NCBI GenBank assembly: GCA_963699635.1
Contig: CAVOUQ010000016.1
Coordinates: 200,680-264,679, forward strand
Direction of reading: 5' to 3'
From: an uncultured Actinomycetes bacterium
GTDB taxonomy: Bacteria > Actinomycetota > UBA4738 > HRBIN12
Length of the DNA stretch: 64,000 bases
Shown here: positions 8,977 through 34,858 of the stretch, one piece after another
Layout of the letters: the number at the start of each line of letters is the position of its first letter
Position numbering within the stretch: the first letter of the stretch is position 1
Program-made: the position numbers and the translations under genes
Notes under the pieces: generated by a model
Database searches by the model: none
What the model saw: the letters and a program-made list of their open reading frames with translations, nothing else
What the model was told of the DNA's origin: nothing

Positions 8977-9638
8977 GCGAGATCCGGGCCGTCCTGCTCG
9001 ACCTGTACGACACGCTCGTGTGGAGCGAGTGGCCGAAGGCGCGCATCGCCTGGCAGCAACGCCTCGGCGTCTCCGAGGCCGAGCTCCTCCGGGCGTTCGT
9101 GGAGACCCGCCGGGCGCGAAGCGTGGGGGCGTTCGGCAGCGCCGAGGGCGACGTCGTCGCGGTCCTGCGGGCCGCCGGGGCCCCCTCATCCCCCGAGGTC
9201 GTCCGGGAGATCACCGACGCGACCCGCGAGTTCCTGCGCACCGGCGTGACGCTGTACGAGGACTCGCTGCCGACCCTGCGCGACCTTCGAGCCCGGGGCG
9301 TGCGGACCGCGGTCGTCAGCAATTGCGACCACACGACCCGGGCGGTCATCGAGCGGCTCGGCCTGGAGGAGGAGGCCGACGCGGTGATCCTCTCGTTCGA
9401 GGTCGAGGCGGCGAAGCCCGATCCCGCGATCTACGTCGCCGCCCTCGAGCGGCTCGAGGTCGCGGCGCCCGAGGCGGCGTTCGCCGACGACCAGGCGCGG
9501 TACTGCGACGGGGCGGCCGGGCTCGGGATGAGGACGTTCCTCGTCCAGCGCGACGGCGCGGCGCCGGCCGAGGGCGTGAGTGAGCCCCGAGGTCATCGGG
9601 TGATCCCCGATCTCCGGGCGCTCCTGGACGCGATCTAA
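8973..9638 (+). CDS. HAD-superfamily hydrolase
   Basis: The GTG start overlaps the decarboxylase stop (GTGA). Motifs LLDLYDTLV, VVSNCD, KPDP. Confidence 0.8.
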   Translation: MSEIRAVLLDLYDTLVWSEWPKARIAWQQRLGVSEAELLRAFVETRRARSVGAFGSAEGDVVAVLRAAGAPSSPEVVREITDATREFLRTGVTLYEDSLPTLRDLRARGVRTAVVSNCDHTTRAVIERLGLEEEADAVILSFEVEAAKPDPAIYVAALERLEVAAPEAAFADDQARYCDGAAGLGMRTFLVQRDGAAPAEGVSEPRGHRVIPDLRALLDAI

Positions 9639-10510
9639 ACCGGGCTCGTCCCGAGCTGTCGCTTGATCTCCTCGAGCCGCGCGATGCGCGCCTCGGTCGG
9701 CGGATGCGTCGAGAACAGGCCGGCGAAGCTCGCCGAGGCCTGCCGCCCGCGGAACGGGTTCACGATGAACAGATGCGCCTGCGCCGGGCTCACGGTCGCC
9801 GGCACCGGCACCCGCTTCGCCGTCGCCTCGAGCTTGCGGAGCGCGCTCGCGAGCGCGTCGGGATCGTGCGAGAGGATCGCGCCCGATTCGTCCGCCTGAT
9901 ACTCGCGCGAGCGACTCACGGCCATCTGGATGATGGCGGCGGCGATCGGTGCGAGGAGCCACGCGAAGAGCATGCCGAACGCGCCGAACGGGCCGTTGCG
10001 ATCGTCTCCGCCGCCGAAGAACAAGGCGAAGCGGGCGAGGAACGTGATGCTCATGCCGATCCCCGCGGCGATCGAGCTGATCAGGATGTCGCGATTGGCG
10101 ACGTGCGAGAGCTCGTGCGCCAGGACCCCGCGGAGCTCGCGCTCGTCGAGGATCTCGAGGATCCCCCTCGTCACCGACACGGCGGCGTGGTCCGGGTTTC
10201 GGCCGGTCGCGAACGCGTTGGGCTGTTGCATCTCCGAGACGTAGATCGTGGGCATCGGCATGTGGTTGAGCTGCGTGAGCTCTCGAACGATCCGGTACAG
10301 CTCCGGCGCCTCCGCCTCGCTCACCGGCTTGGATCTCGTGGTCGCGATCGCGATCTTGTCGCTGAACCAGTACATCGAGAAGTTGAAGACCAGGGCGATC
10401 GCCAGCGCCAGCACCATGCCGCCGGTGCCCCAGATGGAGCCGACGAGGACGAAGGCTCCCCCGAGCGCCGCGATCAGGATCCAGGTCTTGATCCTGTTGA
10501 GACCGATCAT
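9635..10510 (-). CDS. htpX: Zinc metalloprotease HtpX
   Basis: 291 aa with HELSHVANRD (HExxH), 4 TM segments and SD AAAGGAGGG upstream. Confidence 0.9.
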   Translation of the reverse strand: MIGLNRIKTWILIAALGGAFVLVGSIWGTGGMVLALAIALVFNFSMYWFSDKIAIATTRSKPVSEAEAPELYRIVRELTQLNHMPMPTIYVSEMQQPNAFATGRNPDHAAVSVTRGILEILDERELRGVLAHELSHVANRDILISSIAAGIGMSITFLARFALFFGGGDDRNGPFGAFGMLFAWLLAPIAAAIIQMAVSRSREYQADESGAILSHDPDALASALRKLEATAKRVPVPATVSPAQAHLFIVNPFRGRQASASFAGLFSTHPPTEARIARLEEIKRQLGTSPV

Positions 10511-10561: not shown

Positions 10562-12028
10562 CTAGGGGCCGGCGAGGGTCGACAGCGGCGGGAAATGGGC
10601 CAGGAGCTCGGGCCACACGCCCACGGCCACCACCGCCGCCGTCGCCACGACCGTCACGGCGGTCACCAGGACCGGAGGGACGAGCGGCCGGTCGTGCTCG
10701 GGCTCCGCGAACAGCATCTCCCTCGGCACGGCGAGGTAGTACACGAGGCTGATCACGGAGTTGACGAGCATCACCACGGCCAGCATCGTTCCGATCCCGC
10801 CGCGCTCGATGGCGACCTTGAAGACCAGGAACTTCGCCCAGAAGCCTCCGGTCGGCGGGATCCCGGCGAGCGAGACCATGAACACGGTCATCGCGACCGC
10901 GATGAACGGGGCCCGGCGGCTGAGTCCGGCGAAGTCCGAGATCAGCAGGCCGCGGGACTCCTTGGACATCGCGATCACGACGGCGAACGCGCCGAGCGTC
11001 ATGATCGCGTAGATCAGGATGTAGGTGACCGCGGCCGCGAACGCGTCCCGGTTGATGCCCGCGTCGGCCGAGACGAGGGCGAACGGCAGCAGCATGTACC
11101 CGGCCTGGGCGATGCTCGAGTAGGCGAGCAGCCGGACCACCTGTCGCTGCTGTAGCGCGACGAGGTTGCCGATCGTCATCGTCGCGATCGACAGCGTCGC
11201 GAAGATCGGGGTCCAGAACTCGTACTGGTTCGGGAACGCGACGAACATCAGCTGGAGGAGTCCGGCGAACCCCGCGGCCTTCGACGCCGTCGCGAGGAAC
11301 GCCGCGACCGGCACCGGCGCGCCCTCGTACGTGTCGGGCGCCCAGAACTGGAACGGGACGGCGCTCACCTTGAACGCGAACCCGGTCACGATGAACAGGA
11401 TGGCGGCGAGCACGAGCGTCTCCTGCCCGTCGGGCAGCGCCCCCGAGAGCGCCCGTCCGATCTCGCCGAGGTTGAGCGTCCCGGTCACGCCGTAGATCAG
11501 GCTCATCCCGTACAGCATCACGGCCGTGGAGAGGACGCCGATCAGGAAGAACTTGATCCCGGCCTCGTTGGAGCGAGGGTCGGCCTTGCGGAAGGCCGCG
11601 ATGAGGAACCCGGGGGCGCTCACCGTCTCGAGCGCGATGAACAGCATCAACAGGTCGCGCGAGCTCGGCATGAGCAGGCAACCCAGGAAGGACGTCAGGA
11701 GCAGGAAGTAGTACTCGCCCTGGTAGAAGCGCCCGTCGCGGAAGTACCGGAGCGAGAGCATCAGGACGATCAGCGCGACGGTCAGAAAGAAGATCTTGAA
11801 CAGGACGGCGAAGTCGTCAACGACGAACGCCCCGCCGAACGTCGTGCGGTCCTGCCCGACGAGCGTGAGCACCGCGATCAGGGACGCGAGCACGCCGACG
11901 AACCCGAGCGGCATCGTGAACCACTTCCGCCGCTCGGACAGGAACGCATCCACGATGAGGACGAGCAGGATCGTGCCGGAGAGGATCATCTCCGGCAGGA
12001 TCGCGTAGTAGTCGATCGCCTGGTTCAT
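10562..12028 (-). CDS. nuoN: NADH-quinone oxidoreductase subunit N (operon 1, partial complex I)
   Basis: 488-aa polytopic antiporter-like ORF, last gene after nuoM. Confidence 0.9.
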   Translation of the reverse strand: MNQAIDYYAILPEMILSGTILLVLIVDAFLSERRKWFTMPLGFVGVLASLIAVLTLVGQDRTTFGGAFVVDDFAVLFKIFFLTVALIVLMLSLRYFRDGRFYQGEYYFLLLTSFLGCLLMPSSRDLLMLFIALETVSAPGFLIAAFRKADPRSNEAGIKFFLIGVLSTAVMLYGMSLIYGVTGTLNLGEIGRALSGALPDGQETLVLAAILFIVTGFAFKVSAVPFQFWAPDTYEGAPVPVAAFLATASKAAGFAGLLQLMFVAFPNQYEFWTPIFATLSIATMTIGNLVALQQRQVVRLLAYSSIAQAGYMLLPFALVSADAGINRDAFAAAVTYILIYAIMTLGAFAVVIAMSKESRGLLISDFAGLSRRAPFIAVAMTVFMVSLAGIPPTGGFWAKFLVFKVAIERGGIGTMLAVVMLVNSVISLVYYLAVPREMLFAEPEHDRPLVPPVLVTAVTVVATAAVVAVGVWPELLAHFPPLSTLAGP

Positions 12029-12052
12029 CGCCGCGCCGTCATCCGCCCGGGA

Positions 12053-13588
12053 TCAGCCGCCGAAGAGGTGGAGGAGGGCGTCGACCGGCTCCTGGGTCAC
12101 GCCGAAGATGATGCTGGGGAAGATCCCGAGCAGGACCGTCGCGACCAGCAACGGAACCCACGACACCCACTCCACGGCCACCACGTCGGGGAACGCGTCC
12201 TGCTGCCACTTCTCCGGGAGCGTGCCCATGTTCACGCGCTGCAACATCCACAGGAAGTACCCGGCGGTGAGGATGGTCCCGATGCCACCCGCCACCATGA
12301 AGACGCGGAACAGCCCCGTGTTGAGGGCGGCGGCCGGGCTGTAGCTCGAGAGCAACGCCATCACCTCGCCCCAGAAGCCGGCAAGGCCAGGCAGGCCCAG
12401 CGACGCGATCGCGACGAACGCGAAGACGCCGCCAAGGTAGGGCAGCTTCTGCATCACCCCGCCGCCGATCTCGGCGATCTCCCGCGTGTGGTAGCGGTCG
12501 TAGAGCGATCCGACGCAGAAGAAGAGCATCCCGGTGATCACGCCGTGCGCAACCATGCCGAAGATCGCGGCGTTGATCCCGATCGTCGTGAGCGTCGCGA
12601 TCCCGAGCATCACGAACCCCATGTGGCCGACGGAGCTGAACGCGATGAGGCGTTTCAGGTCCTTCTGCGCCAGACACGCGAGTGCCGCGTAGACGATGGC
12701 GATGGCCGCGAGCGCGCCGATCAACGGCGCGTACCGCTGAGCCCCGTACGGCAGGATCGGCAGCGCGATCCGGATGAACCCGTAGGTGCCCATCTTCAGC
12801 ATCACGCCGGCGAGCAAGACCGAACCGATCGTCGGCGCCTCGGTATGGGCATCGGGCAGCCAGGTGTGGAAGGGCCACATCGGGACCTTCACGGCGAAGC
12901 CAAGCCCGACGGCCGCGAACGCCACCAGCTGGAAGTCGTTCGAGAAGCCGCCGCCGGCCGCGAAGTGCTGAAGGGCAACCATGTCGAAGGTGTGCAGCCC
13001 ACCCCCGATGTCCGAGCGGAAGTACATCGCGAGGAATCCCAGGAGCATGAACACCGATCCGAACAGCGTGTACAGGAAGAACTTGATGGCCGCGTACTCG
13101 CGGTTCGCGCTCCCCCAGATGCCGATCAGGAAGTACATCGGGACCAGCACGAGCTCCCAGAAGACGAAGAACAGGATCAGGTCGAACGCGATGAACGTGC
13201 CGGCCATCCCGGTCTCGAGCAGCAACATGAGCCCGATGAAGGCCTTGGTCTTTCCGGGCTTCGGGACGAACCGCCACGTGTAGATGGCGCAGAGGAACGA
13301 GAGGGCAAAGGTGAGCACGTACAGCGGGAGGGAGATGCCGTCGATGCCGACGTGATATCGGGCGTTGATCGCCGGGATCCAGCTCGTGTCCAGCTGGAAC
13401 TGGAGCCCGGCGGCGCCGTAGTCGAAGTCGATCGCCATCGCGATCGCCACCAGGAGCGCGGCGCCCGTGAACGCGATGCCGAGCGCTCGCACCGCCTTTT
13501 CGTTTCGGCGCGGGACGATCGCGATCACCAACGCTCCCGCCAGCGGCAGGAAGGTGGCGATCGTGATCGCCGAGTTCTCCCAGGTCAT
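12053..13588 (-). CDS. nuoM: NADH-quinone oxidoreductase subunit M (operon 1)
   Basis: 511 aa, antiporter-like, with WLPDAHTEAPT motif. Confidence 0.9.
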   Translation of the reverse strand: MTWENSAITIATFLPLAGALVIAIVPRRNEKAVRALGIAFTGAALLVAIAMAIDFDYGAAGLQFQLDTSWIPAINARYHVGIDGISLPLYVLTFALSFLCAIYTWRFVPKPGKTKAFIGLMLLLETGMAGTFIAFDLILFFVFWELVLVPMYFLIGIWGSANREYAAIKFFLYTLFGSVFMLLGFLAMYFRSDIGGGLHTFDMVALQHFAAGGGFSNDFQLVAFAAVGLGFAVKVPMWPFHTWLPDAHTEAPTIGSVLLAGVMLKMGTYGFIRIALPILPYGAQRYAPLIGALAAIAIVYAALACLAQKDLKRLIAFSSVGHMGFVMLGIATLTTIGINAAIFGMVAHGVITGMLFFCVGSLYDRYHTREIAEIGGGVMQKLPYLGGVFAFVAIASLGLPGLAGFWGEVMALLSSYSPAAALNTGLFRVFMVAGGIGTILTAGYFLWMLQRVNMGTLPEKWQQDAFPDVVAVEWVSWVPLLVATVLLGIFPSIIFGVTQEPVDALLHLFGG

Positions 13589-13603
13589 CGGCCCGTTCCC
13601 CTC

Positions 13604-15592
13604 TCAGATCCTCGTGAAGACGATGGCCAAGATCACCACGCCGGCGAACAGGAACGCGGCGTAGCGCTGGACGTTGCCCGATTGGATGTAGCGCAGGATT
13701 CCCCCCGTGAATCCGGCCAGGTGGGCGGCCCCGTTCACCGCACCGTCGATCACGTTCCGGTCGAACCACGAGATCACGCCGGAGAAGACCACCGTGACCG
13801 AGGCCACGCCGTTCACCGCGCGATCGATGACGTTCTGGTTGGTCCAGTAGACGAACGCCGCGATCGGATCCCGGATCGGCCGGATGATCCCCTTCCAGTA
13901 CACGTCGTCGAGGTAGTACTTGTTCTCGAGCAGGGTGTACACCGGCCCCAGAGATCGGATGGGGTCGCGCTCCTGCCAGCGTCGGTAGACGACGAAGCCC
14001 GCGCCGATCCCGGCGATCGCCACGACGATCGACAATCCGGCGACCCACGGCACCAGCTTCACCGCCTCCGGCTCCTCGAAGAAGACCCAGTCGAAGAACG
14101 CGGCCCCGACCGGGCCGGCCCCGAGCCACCCGACGAAGAGCGTCGCCCCCGCCAGCCCGATCAGCGGGCCGGTCATCGAGACGGGCGACTCATGCGGGTG
14201 GGCTTGACCCCGGTAGCTCCCGAAGAAGGTCTGCATCAGCATGCGCATCGTGTAGAAGGCCGTCACGATGGCCGTCAGCACCATCACGGTGAACAGCACC
14301 TCGTGGCCCTTCGAGGCCCCGACCAGGATCTCGTCCTTCGACCAGAAGCCGGCGAGGGGCGGCACGCCCGCGAGCGCGGCCGAGCCGATCAGGAACGTCC
14401 AGAAGGTGACGGGCATCGGCCGGCGGAGCCCGCCCATCTCGCTCATGTTGTTCGTGTGGCAGGCGTGGATGACCGATCCGGACCCGAGGAACAGCAGCGC
14501 CTTGAAGAACGCGTGGGAGAAGAGGTGGAACATCGCCGCGTCGCGCCCGATCGCGCCGATCGACATGATCGCGACCATGTAGGCGAGCTGTGAAACCGTC
14601 GAGTACGCGAGGACGCGCTTGATGTCGTCCTGAACCAGCCCGAGCAACGCGGCGCCGAGCATGGTGATGCCACCGACGACGCCGACGACCTGCAAGACAT
14701 ACGGCTCCGCGTGCGCGAAGACGTCGAACATCCGTCCGACCAGGTAGACGCCGGCCGCGACCATCGTCGCCGCGTGGATCAGCGCGGAGACCGGCGTGGG
14801 GCCGGCCATCGCGTCGGGGAGCCACACGTGCAGCGGGAACTGCGCAGACTTGCCGATCGTGCCGCCGAACAACAGGAGCGCGGCGGCCGAGATCAGGGCG
14901 ACCGACATCCGGCCACCGGCCACGATCTCGCCGATCTCGCGGATGTTCGAGGTCCGGAACCCCGTGGCGGCAACCAGGACGAAGATCCCGAACATGAACG
15001 GGACGTCGCCGATGCGCGTGGTGATGAAGGCCTTGATCGCCGAGCTCGAGTTGACGTGCTCCTCCCACCAGTGGCCGATCAGCAGGTAGGAGCAGACCCC
15101 CATCACCTCCCAGCCGACGAGCAGCTGGAAGAGGTTGTTCGCGATGACCACGTCCAGCATCGCGCCAGTGAAGATCGACAGCACGACGAAGAACCAGGTG
15201 TAGCGCCGGTCTCCATGCATGTAGCCGACCGAGTAGACGTGGACGCAGAGCGACACCGCGGTGACGACCACGAACATGACGGCGGTCAACCCGTCGACGA
15301 GCTGCCCGAGCTCCATCTGGAGCGGGCCGATCTGGAACCAGTCGATCGAGCTCTCGTACGTGCCGCCGCCGTGCTGGACGAACTGCCAGAGCACGCCGAG
15401 CGACAGGACGAAGCACACGCCGATCGCGGCGATCCCGTACACCGCTCCCTTGCCGGGCGTGCGCTTGCCGAGGAACAGCGTGAGGGCGGCCGACACGAAC
15501 GGCAGGATCACGATGATCCACGCGTGCTGGATAAACCAGTTCGGCTCGGCGGTGGCATGCTCCGCGGCCTGCAGGACGACGGCGGCTACCAC
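13604..15592 (-). CDS. nuoL: NADH-quinone oxidoreductase subunit L (operon 1)
   Basis: 662 aa with [22 protein letters not shown] and a long C-terminal lateral-helix region. Confidence 0.9.
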
Positions 15593-15888
15593 TTGAGGAG
15601 GTTCACCTCGTCGACGTTGATCGTCTCGCGGTTGCGATAGATCAAGATGACGATCGCGAGCCCGATGCCGACCTCGGCCGCAGCCACCGCGATCACGAAG
15701 AGCGCGAACACCTGTCCCGTGAGCTGTCCGAGCTGTTGGCTGAAGGCGATGAGGTTGATGTTCACGGCGTTCAGCATCAGCTCGATCGCCATCAGGACCA
15801 TCACGGCGTTGCGCCGGGCGAGGACGCCGTACACGCCGGTGGAGAACAGGATGGCGGCGAAGGTCAGGGGAAGGAACAGCCGGATCAC
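15586..15888 (-). CDS. nuoK: NADH-quinone oxidoreductase subunit K (operon 1)
   Basis: 100 aa from GTG 15888 (the GTGA-type overlap with the nuoJ stop was checked by hand), with ..[21 protein letters not shown]. Confidence 0.85.
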
Positions 15889-16385
15889 GTTCGATCGTCC
15901 CGACGCGAGAGCACGATGGCGCCGATCAATGCCGCGAGAAGGATGAACGACACGACCTCGAACGGAAGGATGAAGTCGCTGAAGATCGAGAGCCCGATCG
16001 ACTCCGGGCTCCCCGACACCGGCTGGATCTTCGGGTCGTCCCAGGGGAACGCCCCCTGGATCATGAAGACGAGCCCGGCGAGGATCGCCAGGCCGATCAG
16101 GAACGCAACCCCCCGCCGTTGGTTGTCGAGCGCCTCTCGGCCGATCGGCGCCTTCGTCAGCATCAGTCCGAAGAGGAACAGGATCACGATCGCGCCGACG
16201 TAGATCAGGATCTGCACCCACGCCACGAACTCGGCGGCCAGCAGCAGGTAGACGCCGGCGACCATCGACAGCGTCAGCACCAGATACAACGCCGCGTGGA
16301 CGACGTTCCGAGCCGTGACGAGTCGGAACGCGGAGACCACCCCCACGACGGCCATCACGACGAACGCGTACTCCTGCCCCGTCAC
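15885..16385 (-). CDS. nuoJ: NADH-quinone oxidoreductase subunit J (operon 1)
   Basis: 166 aa from GTG 16385, which overlaps the nuoI stop (GTGA). Contains [11 protein letters not shown] and [14 protein letters not shown]. Confidence 0.85.
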
Positions 16386-17245
16386 GCGCCCTCCGCCTTC
16401 CTCCGGGCCGCGATGATCGCCGCCCGTTTGGCTTGCCCCTCGGCCACCCGCCGGTCCTTCCCCTGCGCCAACTGCTCCGCCAGCACCCGATCGAACGTCT
16501 CCTGATCCGGCACCACCTCGACATGCCCCCCCGCCGCGGCCGCCGTCGGCGACGGGGCGACCTGCGCGACCGGCGCCTCGGTGGGAGCGGCCCCCGCGGG
16601 CGCCGGGGTTGCGGCAACGGGAGCGGCCACGGCAGCCGCCGGGGGCTCTCCGGCGGTGATCACGCCAGGAAGCACCGACGCCGCCGCCGGAGCCTCCCCC
16701 GGCGGAGCCGAGGCCGCGACCGAAACAGCGTCCGTCAAGGGTTCCGCCCCCGTCTCGAGCTCGGGCGGCGGGAGGACCGTGTAGGTCCACTCCTCGAGCT
16801 TCTCCTTCTCGTGCGTGAGCAGGTCGATCTCGTAGGTGGAGTACTCGAACTCCGGGCTCCAGAAGAGTGCGTCGAACGGGCAGACCTCGATGCAGATCCC
16901 GCAGTACATGCACAGCGCGAAGTCGATCGCGAACCGGTCGAGCACCTTGACCGATCGCGCCTTGCCTCCGGAGGCCGGGTCGTGCGTCTCCTTGTGGGCG
17001 TCGATGTAGATGCACCAGTCCGGGCACTCCCGCGAGCACTTGTAGCAGACGGTGCAGTTGGCTTCCTTGAGGGCGATCACGCCTCGCGTTCGAGGGGGCA
17101 GGTCCGGCTTGACCTCCGGGTACTGCTGCGTGATCGAGCGGCGGAGCGCGTGCTTCATCGTGACGCCGAGCCCCTTGATCAGGCCGGCACCCGACCCCTT
17201 CGGATCGGGCGAGGTCTGCACGTCCCGTTCGTCGATCGCCATCAC
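16382..17245 (-). CDS. nuoI: NADH-quinone oxidoreductase subunit I (operon 1) with ~120-aa Ala/Pro-rich C-terminal extension
   Basis: Two CxxCxxCxxxCP motifs ([24 protein letters not shown]). The tail is ..[21 protein letters not shown].. and ends in [30 protein letters not shown]. Confidence 0.9.
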
Positions 17246-17252
17246 GAGCCCC

Positions 17253-18260
17253 CTAGACCGCGACCTTCACGATGCCGACGACCAGGACCTGCGCCAGCGC
17301 CAACGGGATGAGCGCGAGCCAGGATCCCCGCTGCAGCTGATCCTCGCGCATGCGGGGATACGTGGCGCGCAACCAGATGATGAAGAACGAGAGGCCGCCG
17401 ATCTTCGCCGCCATCCAGAGCGGGCCGGGGATGAACTCGAGGAACGGGAGCGAAAGATAGCCACCGAGGAACAGCACCGAGGCGACGGCCGAGAGCGCCA
17501 CGATCCCGCCGTACTCCGCCAGCAGGAAGAACGCGAACTTCAACCCCGTGTACTCGGTCAGCGCGCCGAAGATGATCTCGGAGTCGGCGACCGGCATGTC
17601 GAACGGCGGGCGCGTCAGCTCGGCGAGCGCCGCCACGACGAAGATCGCGAACCCGATCGGCTGCGTGAGCACGAACCAGAACCGCTGCTGCGCCTCGACG
17701 ATCCCGATCATCGAGAGCGTTCCCGCCTGCATCACCACGGCCGCCGCGCCGAGCACCAGAGGCAGCTCGTAGGCGATCAGCTGGGCGGCCGCGCGCAGGG
17801 CGCCGATCAGCGAGAACTTGTTGGCCGAAGCCCAGCCGGCCATCAGCACACCGATCACGGTGACCGACGTGATCGCCATGACGAAGAAGATCCCAACGTC
17901 GAGGTTGAGGATGAAGATCTGGTCCGAGAACGGGATGACGACGAACAGCGCGATGTACGGGACCAACGCGACGGCGGGCGCCATCGAGAAGACCCAGCGA
18001 TCGGCCGCGGCGGGGACGATGTCCTCCTTCTGGACGAACTTCACGCCGTCGGCGATCAGCTGCGCCCAGCCGTGGAAGCGTCCCGCGTACATCGGACCCA
18101 GTCGGGACTGCATGTGCGCGAGCACCTTGTGCTCCATGTACCCGACCACGAGCGGCGCGGTGAGGAAGAACACCAGCACGACGGCGGCCTTGACGACGAG
18201 CACCAGCCAGTAGTTGTCGAACCACTGATCCACGACGCTCACGCCCGCCTGCCCGATCAC
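17253..18260 (-). CDS. nuoH: NADH-quinone oxidoreductase subunit H (operon 1)
   Basis: 335 aa with [11 protein letters not shown] and [18 protein letters not shown] motifs. Its start overlaps the nuoC stop. Confidence 0.9.
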
Positions 18261-18778
18261 TCCTCCTCTTCCTCCTCACCCTCCGCCGCGCCCGGCCAGG
18301 GCTTGACCACGCGCGACATCAGCGGGAAGTCCTTGCGGAGCGGGTGGCCCTCGAAGGGCTCGGGCAGGAGCAGGCCGACGGGCTGCGGGTGGCCCTCGAA
18401 CGTGACCCCGAACATCTCCATGGTCTCGCGCTCGTGCCAGTTCGCCGTCGCGTAGATGTCGGAGATCGTCGGGCAGACCAGGTCGTCGGCCGGCAGGCGC
18501 ACCTTGACGCGGACGTTGTGACGGTGGGTGGTCGAGTAGACGTGGGTCACGATCTCGAGTCCGTCCTGCCCGCGATCGACGCCGGAGGTGAAGTCGCAGT
18601 AGTCGCACGCGAACTCGGGCTCGTCGCGGAGGAAGGTCATCAGCTCCCGGTACCGCGGCGCGACGACCGTCACGACCGGGTGACCGAACGAGTCCTCGAA
18701 GGCGAGGACGTCGTCCCCGAACTGCGCCCGAAGGCGCGTCTCGACCTCAGGAGGTGGCAGCGGATGTGTGCTTACCAC
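18257..18778 (-). CDS. nuoC: NADH-quinone oxidoreductase subunit C (30-kDa family; operon 1), poly-Glu C-terminus
   Basis: 173 aa with [20 protein letters not shown], ending [10 protein letters not shown]. It is followed directly by nuoH, so there is no nuoD. Confidence 0.85.
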
Positions 18779-19259
18779 TCCACTTCTCCCTGATGTCTTC
18801 CTTCTCGATCTTCTCCTGCAGCCGGATGATGCCCTCGAGCAGGGCCTCCGGCCTCGGCGGGCAGCCCGGCACGTAGACGTCGACCGGGATGATCTGGTCG
18901 ATGCCCTTCAGGACCGAGTACGAGTCCCAGTAGGGGCCGCCGCAGTTGGCGCAGGACCCCATCGAGATCACGTACTTCGGCTCGGGCATCTGGTCGTACA
19001 GGCGCTTGATGACGGGCGCCATCTTGTCCGTCGGCGTGCCCGCGACGACCAGCAGGTCGGCCTGACGGGGGCCGTGAGCGAACGGGATCACGCCGAACCG
19101 GATGAAGTCGTGCTTGGAGGTCGAGGCCGCGATGAACTCGATCGAGCAGCACGCGAGGCCGAAGTTGAACACCCACAGCGAGTACCTGCGGCCCCAGTTG
19201 AGGAGGAACTTGATGGGCTGGAACTGTGCGAGGGGCGTCTTCTCCGTGATCAGGCCCAT
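18747..19259 (-). CDS. nuoB: NADH-quinone oxidoreductase subunit B (operon 1)
   Basis: 170 aa from ATG 19259. N2 cluster ligands are present ([23 protein letters not shown]). Confidence 0.9.
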
Positions 19260-19615
19260 CGCAGGACCCCTTTGCGCCACGAGTAGAGCAGCCCGACGGC
19301 CAGGATCCCGATGAAGACCGCCATCTCGACCAGCGCCTGGTATCCGAGGCGCTCGAAGATGCTGGCCCAGGGGAACAGGAAGACCGACTCGACGTCGAAG
19401 ATCACGAAGAGGAACCCGTAGACGTAGTAGCGGACCTGGCTCTGCGACCAGCCCTCGCCCACGGGGTCGATGCCGCACTCATAGGTCAGCAGCTTCTCCG
19501 GGAGCGGGCGCCGGGGTGCGATCAGCCGTGCGGTCCCGAAGGCGACCACGACGAGCCCGACGCCGGCAACCAGGACCGCGAGGACGACCCCGTAGGACTC
19601 GTAATAGGTCTCCAA
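19250..19615 (-). CDS. nuoA: NADH-quinone oxidoreductase subunit A (operon 1)
   Basis: 121 aa with YECGIDP and [15 protein letters not shown]. Confidence 0.9.
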
Positions 19616-19632: not shown

Positions 19633-19650
19633 TTGTGAACGTCTTCTCGA
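19633..19650. promoter_or_regulatory. Degenerate Rex box upstream of nuoA (operon 1)
   Basis: TTGTGAA-CGTC-TTCTCGA, with a perfect left half and 2 mismatches in the right half. It lies 18-35 nt upstream of the nuoA start. Confidence 0.4.
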
Positions 19651-19678: not shown

Positions 19679-20686
19679 TCAGCCCTGCCTGGCTTCGCAG
19701 CGAGTGGCGAGGAACTCCGCGAGCTGGACGAGGGCGCTCAGGGCCGGCCCCTCGGGGAGGCGGGCGCCGAGCGCGTGGGCCCGGTCGACCTCCGCCACGA
19801 CCGCCGCGCGGGCGGCCCCGAGGCTCTCCGGGCCCCGGACGATCTCGAGCGCCCGGCGGAACCGGTCGCCTTCGGGCGGACCCGAGCGCAGCAGCGAGCC
19901 CAGCTCGTCCGCCCCGTTCCCGTGCGCGAGGGCGTGCAGCACCGGGAAGGTGTAGACGCCCTCCCGCAGATCCTGGCCGGGCTCCTTCTGGAGCTCCTGC
20001 TCGGTCGCCGTGAGGTCCATGATGTCGTCGGAGAGCTGGAAGGCCAGGCCGAGCGACTCGCCGAACTCCTCGAGCACGTCCAGGGAGTCGGCGGGGGCAT
20101 CGGAAAGCATCCCGCCGAGCCGGCACGAGGTGGCGATCAGCGCCCCGGTCTTCCGTCGGATGATCTCGAGGTACGCGTCGACCGTCTGGTCCACTCGGCC
20201 TGCGGCCTCGACCTCGCGGATCTGGCCGTCGCAGAGCGTCGCGATCGTCCTGGCGAGGAGCGCGCAGACGTCCGTCCCGAGATCGGTCGCGATGTCGGAG
20301 GCCCGGGCGAACAGGTAGTCGCCCGTGAGGATCGCGACGGTGTTGTTCCAGCGGACGTTCGCCGCGGCCACGCCGTGGCGCGAGTCCGCCTCGTCGATCA
20401 CGTCGTCGTGGTACAGCGTGGCCTGGTGCACGAGCTCGATCGAGACCGACCCCGGGATCAGGCGAGGGTCGGCGGGATCCCCGAAGTAGCCGGCCAGGAG
20501 GATGAGCATCGGGCGGAAGCGCTTCCCGCCGGCGGTGAGCAGGTAGCGGGCCGTCTCCCACAACATGTCGGAGTCGGCCCGGACGGCCTTCTCGAGGGCC
20601 TCCTCGACCTCGCCGAGGCGGGCTCGGATCTCGCGCTCGAGGACGGGGTCGGGAACCTCCAGCCCGGGGATCACGCGGCGGCTCAT
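19679..20686 (-). CDS. Polyprenyl diphosphate synthase (trans-IPPS; probable menaquinone side-chain synthase)
   Basis: 335 aa with GGKRFRP, LYHDDVIDEADSRHG and FQLSDDIMD (both Asp-rich motifs). Confidence 0.85.
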   Translation of the reverse strand: MSRRVIPGLEVPDPVLEREIRARLGEVEEALEKAVRADSDMLWETARYLLTAGGKRFRPMLILLAGYFGDPADPRLIPGSVSIELVHQATLYHDDVIDEADSRHGVAAANVRWNNTVAILTGDYLFARASDIATDLGTDVCALLARTIATLCDGQIREVEAAGRVDQTVDAYLEIIRRKTGALIATSCRLGGMLSDAPADSLDVLEEFGESLGLAFQLSDDIMDLTATEQELQKEPGQDLREGVYTFPVLHALAHGNGADELGSLLRSGPPEGDRFRRALEIVRGPESLGAARAAVVAEVDRAHALGARLPEGPALSALVQLAEFLATRCEARQG

Positions 20687-20720: not shown

Positions 20721-22169
20721 TCACCATCGCAGCACCGCCGCCCGGTCCAGGAAGCCGATCACGAGGCCGGGGAACACGCCGAGCACGAGGACCAGCGCCG
20801 CAGAGACGCCGACCACGAGCCGGGGCAGGAAGGTCTCGTCCGTCTCCGCGTCGCCCTCCGGCTCGTGCATGAACATCAGGACGACCACCCGGAGGTAGAA
20901 GAAGGCCGCCACGACGCTTGCCAGCACGCCGATCAGCACGAGGGGCCAGGATCCGGCGTCGACGGCGGCCCGGAACACCCCCACCTTGGCGATGAAGCCG
21001 GCCGTCGGCGGGATCCCGGCGAGCGACAGCAGGAACAGCGTGAGGAGCCCCGCAAGGAGCGGGCTCCGGCGCCCGAGCCCCGCGTAGGACGCGAGCGAGG
21101 TACGCCGCTCCCCCCGCGCGGACACCAGCATCACGACGCCGAACGCGCCGAGGATCGTGAGCGCGTACGCGACCAGGTAGAACAGGGCGGCGCTGATGCC
21201 CGTCTCGCCCACGGCCACGATCCCCGTCAACACGAACCCCGCGTGGGCGATGCTCGAGTACGCGAGCATCCGCTTGATGTCGGTCTGCGCGATCGCGAGC
21301 ACGCTCCCGGCGATCACCGAGACCGCGGCCAGGACCCAGACGAGCGGACGCCAGTCCCACGCCAGCGGCTGCAGCGCGACGTTGAACACCCGCATCAGCG
21401 CGGCGAAGGCCGCCACCTTCGTCCCCGCCGACATGAACGCCGTGACCGCCGTCGGGGCGCCCTGGTACACGTCGGGCGTCCACATGTGGAACGGCACCGC
21501 CGAAACCTTGAAGGCGAAGCCGACGGCGAGGAGCCCCATCGCCGCGAGCGCGAGGGCCAGGCCGTCGGTCCGGCCCGCGAGCGCCCGCGAGATCGCGGAG
21601 AGTTGGGTCGAGCCGGTGGCGCCGTAGGCCATCGCGACGCCGAAGAGGAAGAACGCGGACGAGAAGGCCCCGAGCAGGAAGTACTTCATCGCGCCCTCGA
21701 CCGACCCGAGGCGCTGGCTGAAGCCGGTCAGGACGTAGAGCGAGAGCGAGAGGACCTCGAGGGCGAGGAACACGAGGATCAGGTCTGAAGCCACCGCGAT
21801 CAGCGTCATCCCCGACGTCGCGAACAGGACGAGCGGGAAGAACTCGGCGCGAGCCTCCCCGGAGCGCTCGAAGTAGTGGGAGCCGAAGACGAGACCGATC
21901 GCGGCGGTCCCGAGGATGATCAACCGGACGACCACCCCGAAGCGGTCGACGGCGACGGAGCCGGCGAGCACGGTCGGGCCGCCCCCCCAGTCCCACAGCG
22001 CGATCGAGGCGGCGGCGGCGGCGGCGACGCCCACGAGCGAGACGAGCAGGAGCGTGAGCGGCTCGACCCGGCGGAGCGTCGCGCCCGCCAGCAGGACCAG
22101 GATCCCGGTTCCCACCAGGATGAGCTCGGGGAAGACCGGCCCGAGATCGACGGCCGGGTGCGGGATCAC
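20721..22169 (-). CDS. nuoN: NADH-quinone oxidoreductase subunit N (operon 2, complete complex I)
   Basis: 482-aa antiporter-like ORF. Its start overlaps the nuoM stop. Confidence 0.9.
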   Translation of the reverse strand: MIPHPAVDLGPVFPELILVGTGILVLLAGATLRRVEPLTLLLVSLVGVAAAAAASIALWDWGGGPTVLAGSVAVDRFGVVVRLIILGTAAIGLVFGSHYFERSGEARAEFFPLVLFATSGMTLIAVASDLILVFLALEVLSLSLYVLTGFSQRLGSVEGAMKYFLLGAFSSAFFLFGVAMAYGATGSTQLSAISRALAGRTDGLALALAAMGLLAVGFAFKVSAVPFHMWTPDVYQGAPTAVTAFMSAGTKVAAFAALMRVFNVALQPLAWDWRPLVWVLAAVSVIAGSVLAIAQTDIKRMLAYSSIAHAGFVLTGIVAVGETGISAALFYLVAYALTILGAFGVVMLVSARGERRTSLASYAGLGRRSPLLAGLLTLFLLSLAGIPPTAGFIAKVGVFRAAVDAGSWPLVLIGVLASVVAAFFYLRVVVLMFMHEPEGDAETDETFLPRLVVGVSAALVLVLGVFPGLVIGFLDRAAVLRW

Positions 22170-23749
22170 GGCGCCCCCTCACCCGAGCCGCTCGGCGCGG
22201 CGATGACGCCGACCGGCGGCCGGAACTCGGGCTGGACCTCGGCTCGAAGCCCGCCGGGGAGCCCGGGCTGGCCCACCTCCACGGTGTCGATCCAGGCGAC
22301 CGTGCCCTCGCTCGTCGGGTTGATCCGGTCGAGCACGACGTTCGGGTAGACGCCGATGAAGAGCATGGCCGCGATCACCGGCAGGACCGCGGCGAACTCC
22401 CGCGGCAGCATGTCGGCGACGCCGCGGTGGCGCCCCGGCTCGGGTCCCTGGAACGTCCGCTGATAGGCCCACAACATGTAGATCGCGGCGAGCACCACGC
22501 CGGTGACGGCGATCGCGCCGAGCCACCGGTTCGCCCCGAAGGCCCCGAGGATCACGAGGAACTCGCCGACGAAGTTGTTCAGGCCGGGAAGACCGATGGA
22601 GGAGAGCGTCGCCACCAGGAACGTCGCGGCGATCCAGGGCGTGACCTGGGCGAGGCCGCCCATCTCACCCATCTCGCGCGTGTGGGTTCGCTCGTAGAGC
22701 ATGCCGATCGCGAAGAAGAGGAGCCCGGTGGACAGCCCGTGGTTCACCATCTGGATCACGGCGCCGCTCATCCCCTCGGTCGTGAGGGTGAAGATCCCAA
22801 GGATCACGAACCCCATGTGGCTGACGGAGGAGTACGCCACGAGCCGCTTCACGTCGGTCTGCATCATCGCGACGATCGCGCCGTACACGATGCCGATCAC
22901 CGCGAGCACCCCGATCGCTTCGGCGAAGTACCGGGACGCCTCGGGGAACAGGTCGAGGTTGAACCGCAGGAGGCCGTACGGCCCGGCCTTCAGCAGGAGC
23001 GCCGCCAGGACGATCGAGCCCTTCGTCGGCGCCTCGGTGTGCGCGTCCGGGAGCCAGGTGTGGAGCGGGAAGATCGGGACCTTCACCGCGAACCCGATGA
23101 AGAACGCGACGAAGAGCCACCGCTGGACGCCGACCCCGAGCGAAAGCTGCTCCATCTGCCGGATGTCGAAGCTCCCCTGCCCGAACTGTTCCACCGTCTG
23201 GAACCACAGATAGAGCGTCGCCAGGAGGATGAACGCCGACCCGAGCATCGTGTAGAGGAAGAACTTCACGCTGGCGTACACGCGCCGCGACGAGCCCCAG
23301 ACCCCGATGATCAGGAACATCGGGACGAGCAGCGCCTCGAAGAAGACGAAGAAGAGCAGGAGGTCGAGCGCGCAGAACGAGCCGAGCACGACCGTCTCGA
23401 GCACGAGCGAGAGCGCCATGAACGCCCGGACCCGGCTGGTCATGCCCCACGCCGCGATCAGGCCGATGGGGAACATGAACGCCGTGAGGACGACCAGCCA
23501 GATGCTGAAGCCGTCCACGCCCACGAGGTAGGAGACGCCCGCCGACGCGACCCAGTCGACCTGCTCGACGAGCTGATAGCCCGAGCGCTCGATGTCGAAT
23601 GCCCCGAGGACCCCGAGGGAGACGACGAAGCAGGCGATCATCACGAGGAGGGTCAGCCACCGGGCCTGAGCGTCGGTCATCCCTCGCCAGAGCAGGAGCA
23701 CCGGCACCCCGATCAGCGGCAGGAAGATGAGGACGCTCAGCCAGGGCAT
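22166..23749 (-). CDS. nuoM: NADH-quinone oxidoreductase subunit M (operon 2)
   Basis: 527 aa with WLPDAHTEAPT. Confidence 0.9.
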   Translation of the reverse strand: MPWLSVLIFLPLIGVPVLLLWRGMTDAQARWLTLLVMIACFVVSLGVLGAFDIERSGYQLVEQVDWVASAGVSYLVGVDGFSIWLVVLTAFMFPIGLIAAWGMTSRVRAFMALSLVLETVVLGSFCALDLLLFFVFFEALLVPMFLIIGVWGSSRRVYASVKFFLYTMLGSAFILLATLYLWFQTVEQFGQGSFDIRQMEQLSLGVGVQRWLFVAFFIGFAVKVPIFPLHTWLPDAHTEAPTKGSIVLAALLLKAGPYGLLRFNLDLFPEASRYFAEAIGVLAVIGIVYGAIVAMMQTDVKRLVAYSSVSHMGFVILGIFTLTTEGMSGAVIQMVNHGLSTGLLFFAIGMLYERTHTREMGEMGGLAQVTPWIAATFLVATLSSIGLPGLNNFVGEFLVILGAFGANRWLGAIAVTGVVLAAIYMLWAYQRTFQGPEPGRHRGVADMLPREFAAVLPVIAAMLFIGVYPNVVLDRINPTSEGTVAWIDTVEVGQPGLPGGLRAEVQPEFRPPVGVIAAPSGSGEGAP

Positions 23750-23750
23750 C

Positions 23751-25619
23751 TCAGAACCTCAGCCCGATGAACAGCAGGAGCGCCACCGCACCCAGGAGGA
23801 ACGCGAGCGCGTAGGAGCGCACGAAGCCCGACTGGAGGACCGGGGCGAGCCGCGAGGCCCGGCCGACCTCCTCGGCGACCTCGTTCACCGCCCCGTCGAC
23901 GACCCGGTCGTCGACCGTGCGCAGGCCTCGGCCGAATCCCATCCCGGCCGTGCGGACGAGCCAGGCGTACAGCGCGTTCACGTAGAAGGCGTTCGAGAGC
24001 CAGCCGGCCAGCTCGGGCTGGCGCCGCGGGAACGCCTCCCAATCCACGCGACCCGAGGCCCAGATGAACCACGCGATCCCCACGGCCAGCACCGCGAGGG
24101 CGACGGAGATCACCACCAGCACGGCCTCGGACAGGCTCGCGTGCCCCGGGTCGGCGATGCCGACGACGGGCTCGAGGAATCGCGCGAGCACCCCTTCCGC
24201 CCGGAAACCGAGCAGGAACCCGCTCACCACCGAGCCGGCCGCCAGGACGGCGAGGGGCGCGTGCATCGACCACGGCGCCTCGTGTGGGTGGGCGTCGGTC
24301 CGCGGCCGGCCGAAGAACGCGAGGAACAGCGGCCTCGCGATGTAGAACGCCGAAAGGAACGCGCCGAGCGACGCGAGCACCCAGGCGAACTCGCGATGGG
24401 ACAGGTAGGCGAAGCCGACGATGTGGTCCTTGGCGAAGAACCCGGCGAGCGGCGGGATCCCGGCGAGCGCGAGCGCTCCGATCGCGAACCAGGTCGCCGA
24501 GACCGGCATCGCCCCCCGCAGCCCACCCATCCTCCGCAGGTCGGTCTCGTCGTCCAGGCCGTGCATGACGTTCCCGCTCGTGAGGAACAGCAGGGCCTTG
24601 TAGAAGGCGTGACAGACGAGGAGGAGCATCGCGCCGGCGTAGAAGCCCATCCCGGCGGCGAAGAACATGAATCCGACCTGGCTCATCGTCGAGTAGGCGA
24701 GCGCGCGTTTGATGTCGAACTGCCCGATCGAGGCGAGCGCCGCGTAGATCGCCGAGAGCAGGCCGATCACGAGGACGATCGTGAGCGCAACATCGGACGC
24801 CTCGAACAGGGCGTGCGAGCGGACGATCAGGTACACCCCGGCGGTCACCATCGTCGCGGCGTGGATCAGCGCCGACACCGGCGTCGGTCCCTCCATCGCG
24901 TCCGGGAGCCAGACGTGCAGCGGCAGCTGCGCGGACTTGCCGACCGCCCCGGCGAGCAGGAGCAACGCGATCGCCGTCGAGGCGGACTCCGAGACCGCCG
25001 CGTTCGCCCCGAACACCTTCCCGAAGTCGAGCGAGCCGTAGTGGACGAAGATCAGCGCGACGCCGAGCAGCATCGCGGCGTCGCCGATCCGGGTCGTCAC
25101 GAACGCCTTCTTGGCCGCGCTCGCCGCGACCGGGCGCTCGAACCAGAACCCGATCAGCAGGTACGAGCAGAGCCCGACGCCCTCCCACCCCAGGTACAGG
25201 AGGAGGTAGTTCTCCGCGAGGACGAGCATCAACATGAAGAACACGAACAGGTTGAAGTACGCGAAGAACCGGCCCACCCGCGGGTCGTGCTCCATGTAGC
25301 CGATCGCGTACACATGGATCAGCGCGCCGACCCCGGTGACGACCATCACCATCGTCATCGAGAGCGGGTCGACGAGCAGGTTCGCCTCCACGCGGAAGGT
25401 GCCCACGGTGATCCACTCGAAGAGGTTCACGACGTGGTGGCGTGCCTCGGCCGGCAGAGAGAGCAGGTCCAGCAGCACGGCGACGCCGACGACGAACGAG
25501 GCGACGACGAACGCCGAGGCGAGCCAGCCGGCCCTCCGCCCGAGCCGCTTGCCCAGGAACAGGTTCACGGACGCGCCGGCGAGCGCGAGCGCGGGGATCA
25601 GCCAGGCGGCATCGAGCAC
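23751..25619 (-). CDS. nuoL: NADH-quinone oxidoreductase subunit L (operon 2)
   Basis: 622 aa with [22 protein letters not shown]. Confidence 0.9.
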   Translation of the reverse strand: MLDAAWLIPALALAGASVNLFLGKRLGRRAGWLASAFVVASFVVGVAVLLDLLSLPAEARHHVVNLFEWITVGTFRVEANLLVDPLSMTMVMVVTGVGALIHVYAIGYMEHDPRVGRFFAYFNLFVFFMLMLVLAENYLLLYLGWEGVGLCSYLLIGFWFERPVAASAAKKAFVTTRIGDAAMLLGVALIFVHYGSLDFGKVFGANAAVSESASTAIALLLLAGAVGKSAQLPLHVWLPDAMEGPTPVSALIHAATMVTAGVYLIVRSHALFEASDVALTIVLVIGLLSAIYAALASIGQFDIKRALAYSTMSQVGFMFFAAGMGFYAGAMLLLVCHAFYKALLFLTSGNVMHGLDDETDLRRMGGLRGAMPVSATWFAIGALALAGIPPLAGFFAKDHIVGFAYLSHREFAWVLASLGAFLSAFYIARPLFLAFFGRPRTDAHPHEAPWSMHAPLAVLAAGSVVSGFLLGFRAEGVLARFLEPVVGIADPGHASLSEAVLVVISVALAVLAVGIAWFIWASGRVDWEAFPRRQPELAGWLSNAFYVNALYAWLVRTAGMGFGRGLRTVDDRVVDGAVNEVAEEVGRASRLAPVLQSGFVRSYALAFLLGAVALLLFIGLRF

Positions 25620-25623
25620 GTCG

Positions 25624-25925
25624 TCACCCCCGCAGCACCGTCGCGTCGTCCACGCTGGCGCTGGCCCGTCGCCGGTAGACGTTCACGATGATCGCGAGGC
25701 CGACGACCACCTCGGCCGCCGCGACCACCATCGAGAAGAAGGCCAGGACCTGGCCGTTCAGGTTGCCGTGCATCCGGCTGAACGCGACCAGGGACAGGTT
25801 CACGGCATTCAGCTGAAGCTCGACCGACATGAAGATCACCAGCGCGTTCTTTCGCACGAGCACGCCGATCGTCCCGATCGCGAACAGCATGCTCGACACG
25901 ACGAGGAAGTAGGAGATCGGTGTCC

Positions 25926-25929
<4 letters not shown>
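25624..25929 (-). CDS. nuoK: NADH-quinone oxidoreductase subunit K (operon 2)
   Basis: 101 aa with [21 protein letters not shown]. Confidence 0.9.
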
Positions 25930-26512
<583 letters not shown>

Positions 26513-26513
<1 letters not shown>

Positions 26514-27022
26514 TAGCGCCCCTCCTGCGTTCCGGGTGCGGTGCCGAGCGGCAGCGGCGGCTCGAGCAGCTCCTCCTTCGACAGGATCGCCTCCTCGCGC
26601 GAGAGGAAGCTCATCTCGTAGGCGCTCGTGAGCGTGAGCGCGCGGGTCGGGCAGGCCTCGACGCAGAGGCCGCACATGATGCAGCGCAGGTAGTTGATCT
26701 GGTAATCCTTCGCGTACCGCTCCCCCGGGCTCGTCGGGTGCTCCGGGTCGTTGTCCGCCCCCTCGACCCAGATGGCGTCGGCGGGGCACGCGAACGCGCA
26801 GAGCTCGCACCCGATGCACTTCTCGAGCCCGTTCTCGTGCCGGTTCAGGAGGTGCCGGCCGATGTGACTGCGGGGCGGCGGCGGATCGATCTCCTTCGGA
26901 TACTGCTCGGTGACGTCGCGGCGGAAGATCTGCTTGAAGACCGTCCCCATCCCCTTCGCGATCGCGCCGACCGAGGTCCCGAAGTCGACCCCGGGGCGCT
27001 CGTTCGAGCCCTCCTCGCTCAC
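26513..27022 (-). CDS. nuoI: NADH-quinone oxidoreductase subunit I (operon 2)
   Basis: 169 aa from GTG 27022 (GTGA overlap with the nuoH stop). Contains [12 protein letters not shown] and [12 protein letters not shown]. No long tail. Confidence 0.9.
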
Positions 27023-33752: not shown

Positions 33753-33794
33753 CGCGCCCGTCCTGCTCGCCCGCGAGCTCGGCCCGACGCTCGC

Positions 33795-34288
33795 TCACGT
33801 GGTCCTCCGGTCGACGGGCGGGATGAAGGCGCCCTGGTATCTCGTGGGCACGCCGCCGAGCTCCTCGTCCTTGCGCAGCGGCCACCCCTCCCAGTCGTCG
33901 GGCAGCAGGATCCTGCGCAGATCCGGGTGGCCCTCGAACTCGATGCCGTAGAAGTCGTAGACCTCGCGCTCGTGCCAGTCGGCCGTCGGAAACAGGGACG
34001 AGAGCGACGGCACGCGCGCATCGTCCTCGGGCACGCCGACCTTCACCCGGAGTCGATGCCGGTGCGCGATCGAGAGCAGCTCCACCACGACCCAGAACCG
34101 CGGCTCGCGCCCCGGCCAGTCGGTGGCCGTCAGGCTCGAGAGGAAGTCCAGTGACAGCTCGGGGTCCTCGCGCAGGCCGTCGAGCGAGGACAGGAGCTCC
34201 TCGCGCTCAAGGAACAGCGTGACCTCGTCTCGCACGACGACGACGTCGGGATGTCGGGCCCGGATGCGATCGGCGAGGTCCTCCGCCC

Positions 34289-34292
<4 letters not shown>
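33795..34292 (-). CDS. nuoC: NADH-quinone oxidoreductase subunit C (operon 2)
   Basis: 165 aa from GTG 34292 (GTGA overlap with the nuoB stop). Contains [20 protein letters not shown]. Confidence 0.85.

Positions 34293-34858
<566 letters not shown>

Follow-up and report, generated by a model that had tools for sequence, protein, structure and literature searches.

The window analysed here, a stretch of 64,000 nucleotides from contig CAVOUQ010000016.1 of an uncultured Actinomycetes bacterium (assembly GCA_963699635.1), is high-GC actinobacterial DNA (about 68–72% GC) and carries on its minus strand, at 10562-19615, ten tightly packed genes for subunits of respiratory complex I in the order nuoA-B-C-H-I-J-K-L-M-N. 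We refer to this cluster as operon 1, or 11-type, and to the canonical nuo operon at 20721-35234 as operon 2; the suffix 1 (NuoB1, NuoI1) denotes products of operon 1. Each of the ten genes was called from a full-length Pfam match, and the gene content is as read in the initial annotation, which had been made from the letters of the window. The genes are as follows.

19250-19615, minus strand: nuoA (11-type), Pfam Oxidored_q4, E 1.9e-35
18747-19259, minus strand: nuoB (11-type), Pfam Oxidored_q6 and NCBIfam NuoB, N2 cysteines present, Thr75
18257-18778, minus strand: nuoC (11-type), 173 residues with an acidic EGEEEEEE end, Pfam Complex1_30kDa, E 5.9e-38
17253-18260, minus strand: nuoH (11-type), Pfam NADHdh, E 1.5e-100
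16382-17245, minus strand: nuoI (11-type), 287 residues, Fer4 and NuoI models
15885-16385, minus strand: nuoJ (11-type), Pfam Oxidored_q3, E 3e-40
15586-15888, minus strand: nuoK (11-type), Pfam Oxidored_q2, E 2.9e-31, both membrane Glu motifs read
13604-15592, minus strand: nuoL (11-type), Pfam Proton_antipo_M and Proton_antipo_N
12053-13588, minus strand: nuoM (11-type), Pfam Proton_antipo_M
10562-12028, minus strand: nuoN (11-type), Pfam Proton_antipo_M

The stop codon of nuoC (18257-18259) and the GTG start codon of nuoH (18258-18260) share the four nucleotides GTGA, and this overlap leaves no room there for nuoD, in agreement with the coordinates of the initial annotation. The same direct nuoC-nuoH junction is present in 17 of 20 relatives, representing eight families, the relatives without it being incomplete assemblies, and it is not a local accident. 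Neither the Pfam matches nor the translations reveal a nuoE, nuoF or nuoG within operon 1, and the cluster has no NADH-oxidising module (N-module) of its own such as the 14-subunit enzyme possesses, as had been noted. The ligands of the iron-sulphur clusters are in place, again as first read: the NuoB translation retains the 16-residue motif with the N2 cysteines together with PGCPP, that of NuoI retains two CxxCxxCxxxCP motifs providing ligands for two [4Fe-4S] clusters, and the family models agree with the translations that N2 and the NuoI clusters of an 11-subunit core are both accounted for. In NuoM the Glu of transmembrane helix 5, the Lys of helices 7 and 8, and the Glu of helix 12 align with a solved NuoM chain, and the Glu/Lys motifs readable in the NuoL, NuoN and NuoK translations, interpreted from established knowledge of these subunits, complete the chain of pump residues. 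The two peculiarities picked out earlier, the EGEEEEEE end of NuoC and the long tail of NuoI, are also seen in the translations. NuoH1 is 53-70% identical to the NuoH of the 11-gene operons described below, versus 41-43% to the canonical NuoH encoded in the window.

The initial annotation held that an electron path is encoded at this locus without its NuoD partner, and proposed a whole-genome hidden Markov model search for homologues of the 49-kDa subunit. We ran the Complex1_49kDa profile against the whole genome (G000) and recovered three nuoD genes, one in operon 2, one on contig C18, and a stand-alone gene on contig C27, a result that contradicts the claim of a missing NuoD:

G000:C27:14764-15951: orphan nuoD, 396 residues, NCBIfam NuoD 431.7 bits against a cut-off of 360

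The orphan gene lies in surroundings of native GC content with no other nuo gene, and its product is only about 45% identical to canonical NuoD. The C18 gene belongs to the one remaining nuo operon with its own nuoD (C18:55.8-73.6 kb), which sits inside a 51% GC stretch (C18 ~10-85 kb) of a contig that otherwise has 70% GC. This operon was considered as a native third set and is treated as contamination or mis-assembly on the basis of that difference in GC; the assembly is scored as 8.7% contaminated. Two segments in 70% GC contigs, G000:C18:~10000-85000 (51% GC) and G000:C19:~1-180000 (62% GC), are probably chimeric joins or contamination, and the low-GC stretch of C18 also carries an FrhB-like gene, which like the foreign nuo operon could distort counts made over the whole genome.

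The orphan nuoD type is widespread and accompanies operon 1. Of 20 relatives, 19 carry it with 72-92% identity, and within the class it is present in 145 of 151 genomes with identities of 69-92%. An H1-type nuoH occurs in 100 of the 251 genomes of a phylum sample restricted to a completeness of 90% or higher, and 99 of these 100 also carry this nuoD type. A dedicated nuoD paralogue elsewhere that co-occurs with the cluster is what the initial annotation had named as evidence against itself, and these are the counts that describe one. The genomes share kinship and all co-occurrence counts given here are descriptive, not statistics. Some genomes flagged as unpublished (G011, G017, G041, G047, G071, G072, G091, G099, G100, G106, G122, G125, G149, G150, G157, G173, G201, G220, G268, G292, G315, G357 and G367) are counted in the relative, class, phylum, NuoF, FpoF-like and methyltransferase tallies; none of the fetched loci, alignments and tree rows is drawn from them.

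Outside the window's class, this nuoD type and the H1-type nuoH are usually adjacent, and all 16 loci that we fetched, from at least ten families, have the order A-B-C-D-H-I-J-K-L-M-N with the D orthologue between C and H. In a maximum-likelihood tree the orphan NuoDs, taken from the window's class and two other families, fall inside the clade of in-operon NuoDs with support of 100/99, and the canonical NuoDs form a separate clade, also with 100/99. The orphans group with one another with support of only 65/20, and nuoD may have left the operon once or twice. This phylogeny makes the orphan nuoD orthologous to the in-operon nuoD of the 11-gene operons of sister classes. Compared with three same-genus genomes, the ratio of nonsynonymous to synonymous substitution rates (dN/dS) is 0.04-0.30 for all 11 genes, and the orphan nuoD is under purifying selection like the operon genes. 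All eleven core subunits are present and co-inherited, ten encoded in operon 1 and D on C27.

These data also bear on the possibility that operon 1 is a decaying duplicate, a non-functional remnant heading for loss, to which nothing points besides the genes missing from the cluster. Neutral evolution of operon 1 had been named in the initial annotation as another observation that would count against its reading, and the dN/dS values given above are not those of neutral evolution. Moreover, the frames are all open, the cofactor and pump residues are retained, and the operon is conserved across the whole class and much of the phylum. Soil metatranscriptome contigs that are 90-95% alike cover the stretch and give a weak hint of expression; only one soil RNA run contained as much as 5% of the words sampled, in short contigs that are mostly 90-95% alike and so come from relatives, with carry-over of DNA possible. 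Decay is scarcely credible as an account of operon 1.

To relate the orphan NuoD to characterised enzymes, its residues were anchored by alignment to solved structures. Arg76 aligns with R121 of the HRGxE motif in Yarrowia, which lies 3.7 Å from N2 and is dimethylated by NDUFAF7, and whose mutation abolishes N2 and all quinone-reductase activity; Thermus has a Thr at the R121 position, and Arg83 of Nqo6 (NuoB) fills the same space (PMC8042128). The 11-type sequences have Arg on NuoD (24 of 24) and Thr on NuoB (22 of 22 operons; residue 75 of NuoB1), and the canonical actinobacterial sequences show the reverse, with Thr on NuoD (six of six) and Arg on all five of the NuoBs that could be read. 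We take NuoB1 Thr75 to be the presumed counterpart of Nqo6 Arg83, since by our count it lies 28 residues from the third N2 cysteine, which fits the established Thermus numbering. Read from these alignments, the arginine switch pairs NuoB1 with the orphan NuoD and not with the NuoD of the neighbouring operon.

The first of two readings offered in the initial annotation was that operon 1 borrows the NuoD of operon 2. Only local gene order speaks for it, with nuoC abutting nuoH and a complete operon lying 1.1 kb upstream. A Thr on NuoB1 combined with the Thr on canonical NuoD would leave no arginine near N2, the loss that in Yarrowia removes both the cluster and the activity, and this argues directly against borrowing. 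Since a dedicated, orthologous nuoD also exists and co-occurs with the operon, the orphan gene and the arginine switch together contradict the proposal, and we regard it as very improbable.

The orphan NuoD is substantially remodelled. In the alignment the quinone-ligand His (His38 in T. thermophilus) corresponds to His50, and the quinone-ligand Tyr (Tyr87 in Thermus, Y144 in Yarrowia, and also a Tyr in cyanobacterial NdhH) to Trp99; a Trp occupies the Nqo4-Tyr87 position, elsewhere a strictly conserved Tyr, in all 24 D11-type NuoDs. The pair of headgroup ligands is therefore only partly kept, with the His retained and the Tyr replaced by Trp. A 41-column deletion is common to all 24, so that about 40 residues of canonical NuoD are gone, and each has an altered, FFVVGDVDR-like C-terminus. 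The FpoD model and the Mbh and Mbs large subunits are also without these ~40 residues, and the short-type orphan NuoD aligns with them end to end.

Taken together, operon 1 and the stand-alone nuoD very probably encode an actinobacterial 11-subunit complex I-type enzyme (A, B, C, D, H-N) without NuoEFG, as judged from gene content, phylogeny and residue conservation. Some donor other than a dedicated NADH module would deliver electrons to the two [4Fe-4S] clusters of NuoI, from which they would pass through N2 on NuoB to menaquinone in a modified pocket with the His kept and the Tyr changed to Trp; reduction of the quinone would then drive proton pumping through the intact antiporter-like subunits. 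With the canonical 14-subunit enzyme (operon 2, T. thermophilus type) the predicted complex shares a homologous core, the N2 and NuoI ligands and the pump residues, but it differs in lacking E, F and G, in the Trp for Tyr87, in the ~40 residues missing from NuoD, and in placing the N2-proximal Arg on NuoD. An 11-subunit core without NuoEFG is also found in cyanobacterial NDH-1 (which uses ferredoxin), archaeal Fpo (F420H2 via FpoF) and the Campylobacter Nuo enzyme (flavodoxin), although the cyanobacterial NdhH keeps the quinone Tyr where the orphan NuoD has Trp.

Among the closest known systems are the 11-gene operons of other classes of Actinomycetota, for example in Nitriliruptorales. Across 16 operons their products are orthologous to those of the window (B 66-82%, H 50-70% and D 51-67% identical), and they share the Trp, the deletion, the arginine switch and the tandem position beside a canonical operon; the difference is that their nuoD lies inside, between C and H, and in the window genome it has moved out. 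In a scan of named genomes we found 80 loci with this nuoD type, 70 of them orphan (carriers include Kribbella, Actinoplanes, Micromonospora, Streptosporangium, Intrasporangium, Terrabacter and Streptomyces) and 10 in-operon (including Nitriliruptorales).

A second set comprising nuoA2, B2, D2 and H2-N2 has been described in Streptomyces, with a separate nuoD2, no N-module, and expression of the cluster as an operon (PMC3765725, PMC8388888), and Moparthi and Hägerhäll place Actinobacteria among the carriers of 11-subunit complex I (PMC3144371). None of these three papers assigns a function or a donor to the second set. The mention in the initial annotation of partial second nuo sets in Streptomyces is borne out by the first two (PMC3765725, PMC8388888), and since nuo2 with a separate nuoD2 is already described, the arrangement is known and operon 1 is a further member. 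The two agree in gene order, in a NuoC-like gene between B and H, in a nuoD located elsewhere, in lacking an N-module, and in having a canonical nuoA-N nearby. The Streptomyces-like orphan NuoD falls in one clade with the orphan NuoD on C27, and its gene too is next to a PF02636 methyltransferase gene. Differences are that the source organism of the window belongs to an uncultured class of Actinomycetota known from soil metagenome-assembled genomes of 2-4 Mb, that its NuoI has a linker and a basic tail motif that Streptomyces-like NuoI is without, and that its NuoC has a short acidic end in place of a long repetitive tail. In a Streptomyces-like genome (G207; L030:5900-7300) the NuoC C-terminal tail is about 300 residues of repeats rich in Pro, Ala, Asp and Glu and takes up the space ahead of nuoH. 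The possibility that Streptomyces-like genomes keep a remnant of nuoD at this place was considered and rejected, because the sequence separating C from H is this repetitive tail.

For Streptomyces it has been proposed, by analogy with cyanobacterial NdhD/F isoforms, that the second set supplies membrane subunits (e.g. L2, M2) for exchange into canonical complex I, and the same papers describe conserved antisense RNAs that overlie nuoL2 and nuoM2 (PMC3765725, PMC8388888). Applied to operon 1, such subunit exchange appears improbable. The cyanobacterial isoforms vary D and F only. In the second set the whole 11-subunit core is encoded and inherited together, A, B, C, D, H, I, J and K included, and its B-D pair is internally matched.

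A gene of the MidA/NDUFAF7 family of methyltransferases lies 1.6 kb from the orphan nuoD:

G000:C27:17526-18629 (= L006:11527-12630), minus strand: MidA/NDUFAF7-family methyltransferase, PF02636, E 2.4e-34

Clustering of the neighbours around orphan nuoD was noisy, with spurious frames in the high-GC DNA, and pointed to this methyltransferase; an Rfam search beside the orphan nuoD gave no match. The PF02636 family is present in 83 of the 251 phylum genomes, 80 of which have a D11-like nuoD, and the two genes are commonly close. The distance is at most 8 kb in 20 of 20 class genomes (a count that includes the flagged G017) and at most 1 kb in all five Streptomyces-like genomes, and in three f16 genomes the genes are adjacent. 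In families f32, f42 and f39 the PF02636 gene is about 8 kb downstream of nuoD, directly after nuoN in both loci checked. Among the orphan-nuoD loci outside the window's class, many of them from named Actinomycetes, 29 of 48 have a PF02636 gene within 3 kb, and often, including in several named Actinomycetes, it is directly upstream of the orphan nuoD on the same strand.

NDUFAF7 methylates the NuoD arginine next to N2 (PMC3829151, PMC8042128). The product of the gene near the orphan nuoD has the PF02636 domain, and the target arginine of HRGxE is invariant in the D11 type and replaced by Thr in canonical NuoD. By analogy, the PF02636 enzyme probably acts on the orphan NuoD arginine, and it would dimethylate this N2-proximal residue as in mitochondria, so maturing the orphan NuoD. 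A more far-reaching view is that the relocated nuoD and the methyltransferase gene form a conserved two-gene module, that dimethylation of the arginine is needed before NuoD joins NuoB and NuoH, and that the result, given the Trp at the quinone-Tyr position and the tethered basic NuoI motif shared with a protein of a bc-complex operon, is a pump driven by ferredoxin or F420H2 with quinone-site chemistry or docking unlike that of any characterised complex I. We offer this as a tentative extension that, as a whole, is rather doubtful.

The genes and sites surrounding operon 1 are as follows.

20721-35234, minus strand: canonical nuoA-N operon of 14 genes (operon 2), context outside the 11-type enzyme
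19679-20686, minus strand: polyprenyl diphosphate synthase between the two nuo operons, Pfam polyprenyl_synt, E 3.4e-61
9635-10510, minus strand: htpX-like M48 peptidase directly 3' of nuoN, Pfam Peptidase_M48
19634-19649, plus strand: Rex-like operator just upstream of nuoA1, 2 mismatches, motif match
132-147, 26391-26406, 36531-36546, 36563-36578 and 49621-49636: other Rex-type operators in the window, motif matches

Operon 2 is complete, as the initial annotation had it: A, B, C, E, F, G, I and J were found by Pfam, D by the Pfam genome search, and H, K, L, M and N by tblastn. A polyprenyl synthase gene lies upstream of nuoA in 7 of 19 compared loci, and an htpX-like homologue downstream of nuoN in 12 of 19. 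The Rex-type operator pattern was TGTGAA-N4-TTCACA with up to 2 mismatches allowed; six matches were found in the window against 0.2 expected, located in front of respiratory operons, and the site before nuoA1 is retained at the same position in three same-genus genomes.

Which donor feeds the complex is less firmly indicated. The genome carries F420 biosynthesis genes (C11:178-183.5 kb) and a candidate input protein encoded apart from the nuo genes:

G000:C10:322144-323274, minus strand: FpoF-like protein with 2x[4Fe-4S], FrhB_N and FrhB_C, stand-alone

In making F420 and possessing an FpoF-like protein, the window genome resembles those that encode Fpo, with the reservation of the low FpoF score given below. 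Orthologues of the FpoF-like protein are conserved across many classes of Actinomycetota and, by a hand count, are present in about 68% of 11-type genomes versus about 10% of the others. An alternative-donor complex, the second reading of the initial annotation, is possible, and we see an even chance that the donor is a soluble low-potential carrier, either ferredoxin or F420H2 acting via the unlinked FpoF-like protein.

Several observations weigh against an independently fed 11-subunit enzyme of the kind proposed, or against parts of that proposal. With Trp substituted for the quinone-ligand Tyr, the case for canonical quinone chemistry is weakened, but not that for subunit homology. The PF02636 gene was not found in the 11-type families f14, f15 and f11 of the phylum sample. 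No input-module gene is conserved beside operon 1-type loci, where only htpX and the polyprenyl synthase gene recur, and this absence of a linked donor-specific subunit sets the system apart from NDH-1, Fpo and the Campylobacter enzyme. The FpoF-like protein scores 151 bits on the FpoF model, far under the cut-off of 475; its gene is never adjacent to the operon, and it was not found in the Streptomyces-like and several other 11-type families. Finally, in every inspected genome across the phylum a canonical operon is close to the 11-type operon, usually in tandem.

This last point favours a different arrangement, in which the eleven subunits, including the orphan NuoD, dock the NuoEFG of the canonical operon to give a second NADH:menaquinone isoenzyme. 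The operator before nuoA1 fits with such sharing, being of the type bound by the NADH/NAD-sensing Rex and conserved within the genus, as does the presence of a NuoF-family gene in 98 of the 100 11-type genomes. However, NuoF-family genes are near-universal (231 of the 251 phylum genomes), so that their co-occurrence has no power as a test of N-module sharing, and two 11-type genomes, G377 (96% complete) and G216 (91% complete), have no NuoF match. The 11-subunit enzymes of cyanobacteria (NDH-1), Fpo and Campylobacter use other donors (PMC4453560). Moreover, NuoI shares only about 30% identity with canonical NuoI in its core and NuoD is strongly remodelled, and a surface for docking NuoG is therefore unlikely to have been kept. 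On balance we consider a shared N-module unlikely and favour the self-contained 11-subunit enzyme.

Outside the contaminant stretch, the genome has a single NuoF-family gene besides that of operon 2, at C19:818 kb, which was rejected as an input module since it adjoins a selenocysteine formate dehydrogenase gene and fdhD. At this locus (G000:C19:818004-822867) a fused NuoE/F-like protein is encoded next to a molybdopterin formate dehydrogenase gene with an in-frame TGA (probable selenocysteine) and fdhD. The selenocysteine enzyme explains the presence of selA in the genome, and the position of selA next to the orphan nuoD looks incidental.

NuoI1 consists of a 2x[4Fe-4S] core (residues ~1-150) followed by a tail of about 135 residues with an Ala/Pro-rich linker, which ends in a basic motif of about 45 residues (window 16385-16534; LDQETFD..LAE..KG..RRVAEG.A..AA). 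The motif is conserved, and sometimes duplicated, in most 11-type NuoIs across classes. It also opens a small open reading frame at 51326-51571, which in a bc-type operon of the window separates the gene for cytochrome b6 from the PetD-like gene, and it ends a 209-residue membrane protein with a single helix (G000:C18:558005-558680). Pfam has no model for the motif or for this membrane protein. The tail motif may serve several respiratory proteins as a common docking module. Frame problems are possible in the GC-rich linker of both the 51326 reading frame and the C18 gene. The operon in question (window 49990-53663) is of bc/b6f type with a split cytochrome b, has a Rex-like box at 49621-49636, and encodes in order a 2x[4Fe-4S] protein, cytochrome b6, the motif reading frame, PetD-like subunit IV, a Rieske protein and cytochrome c.

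In the literature searched we found no mention of the Trp at the quinone-Tyr position of every 11-type NuoD, of the linkage between the nuoD and methyltransferase genes, or of a NuoI tail motif shared with a protein of a bc-complex operon. The puzzle of a complex I without its quinone-pocket subunit dissolves, as that subunit is encoded elsewhere and only the NADH-oxidising module is missing. About 40% of the sampled Actinomycetota, many cultured genera among them, have an 11-subunit complex I of this type, and the invariant Tyr-to-Trp change, the matched arginine switch and the linkage of orphan nuoD to an NDUFAF7 homologue provide handles for work in cultured strains. If the methylation module is as suggested, the 11-subunit enzyme would be a bacterial model of this assembly step, in which the genes for the modifying enzyme and its substrate are linked.

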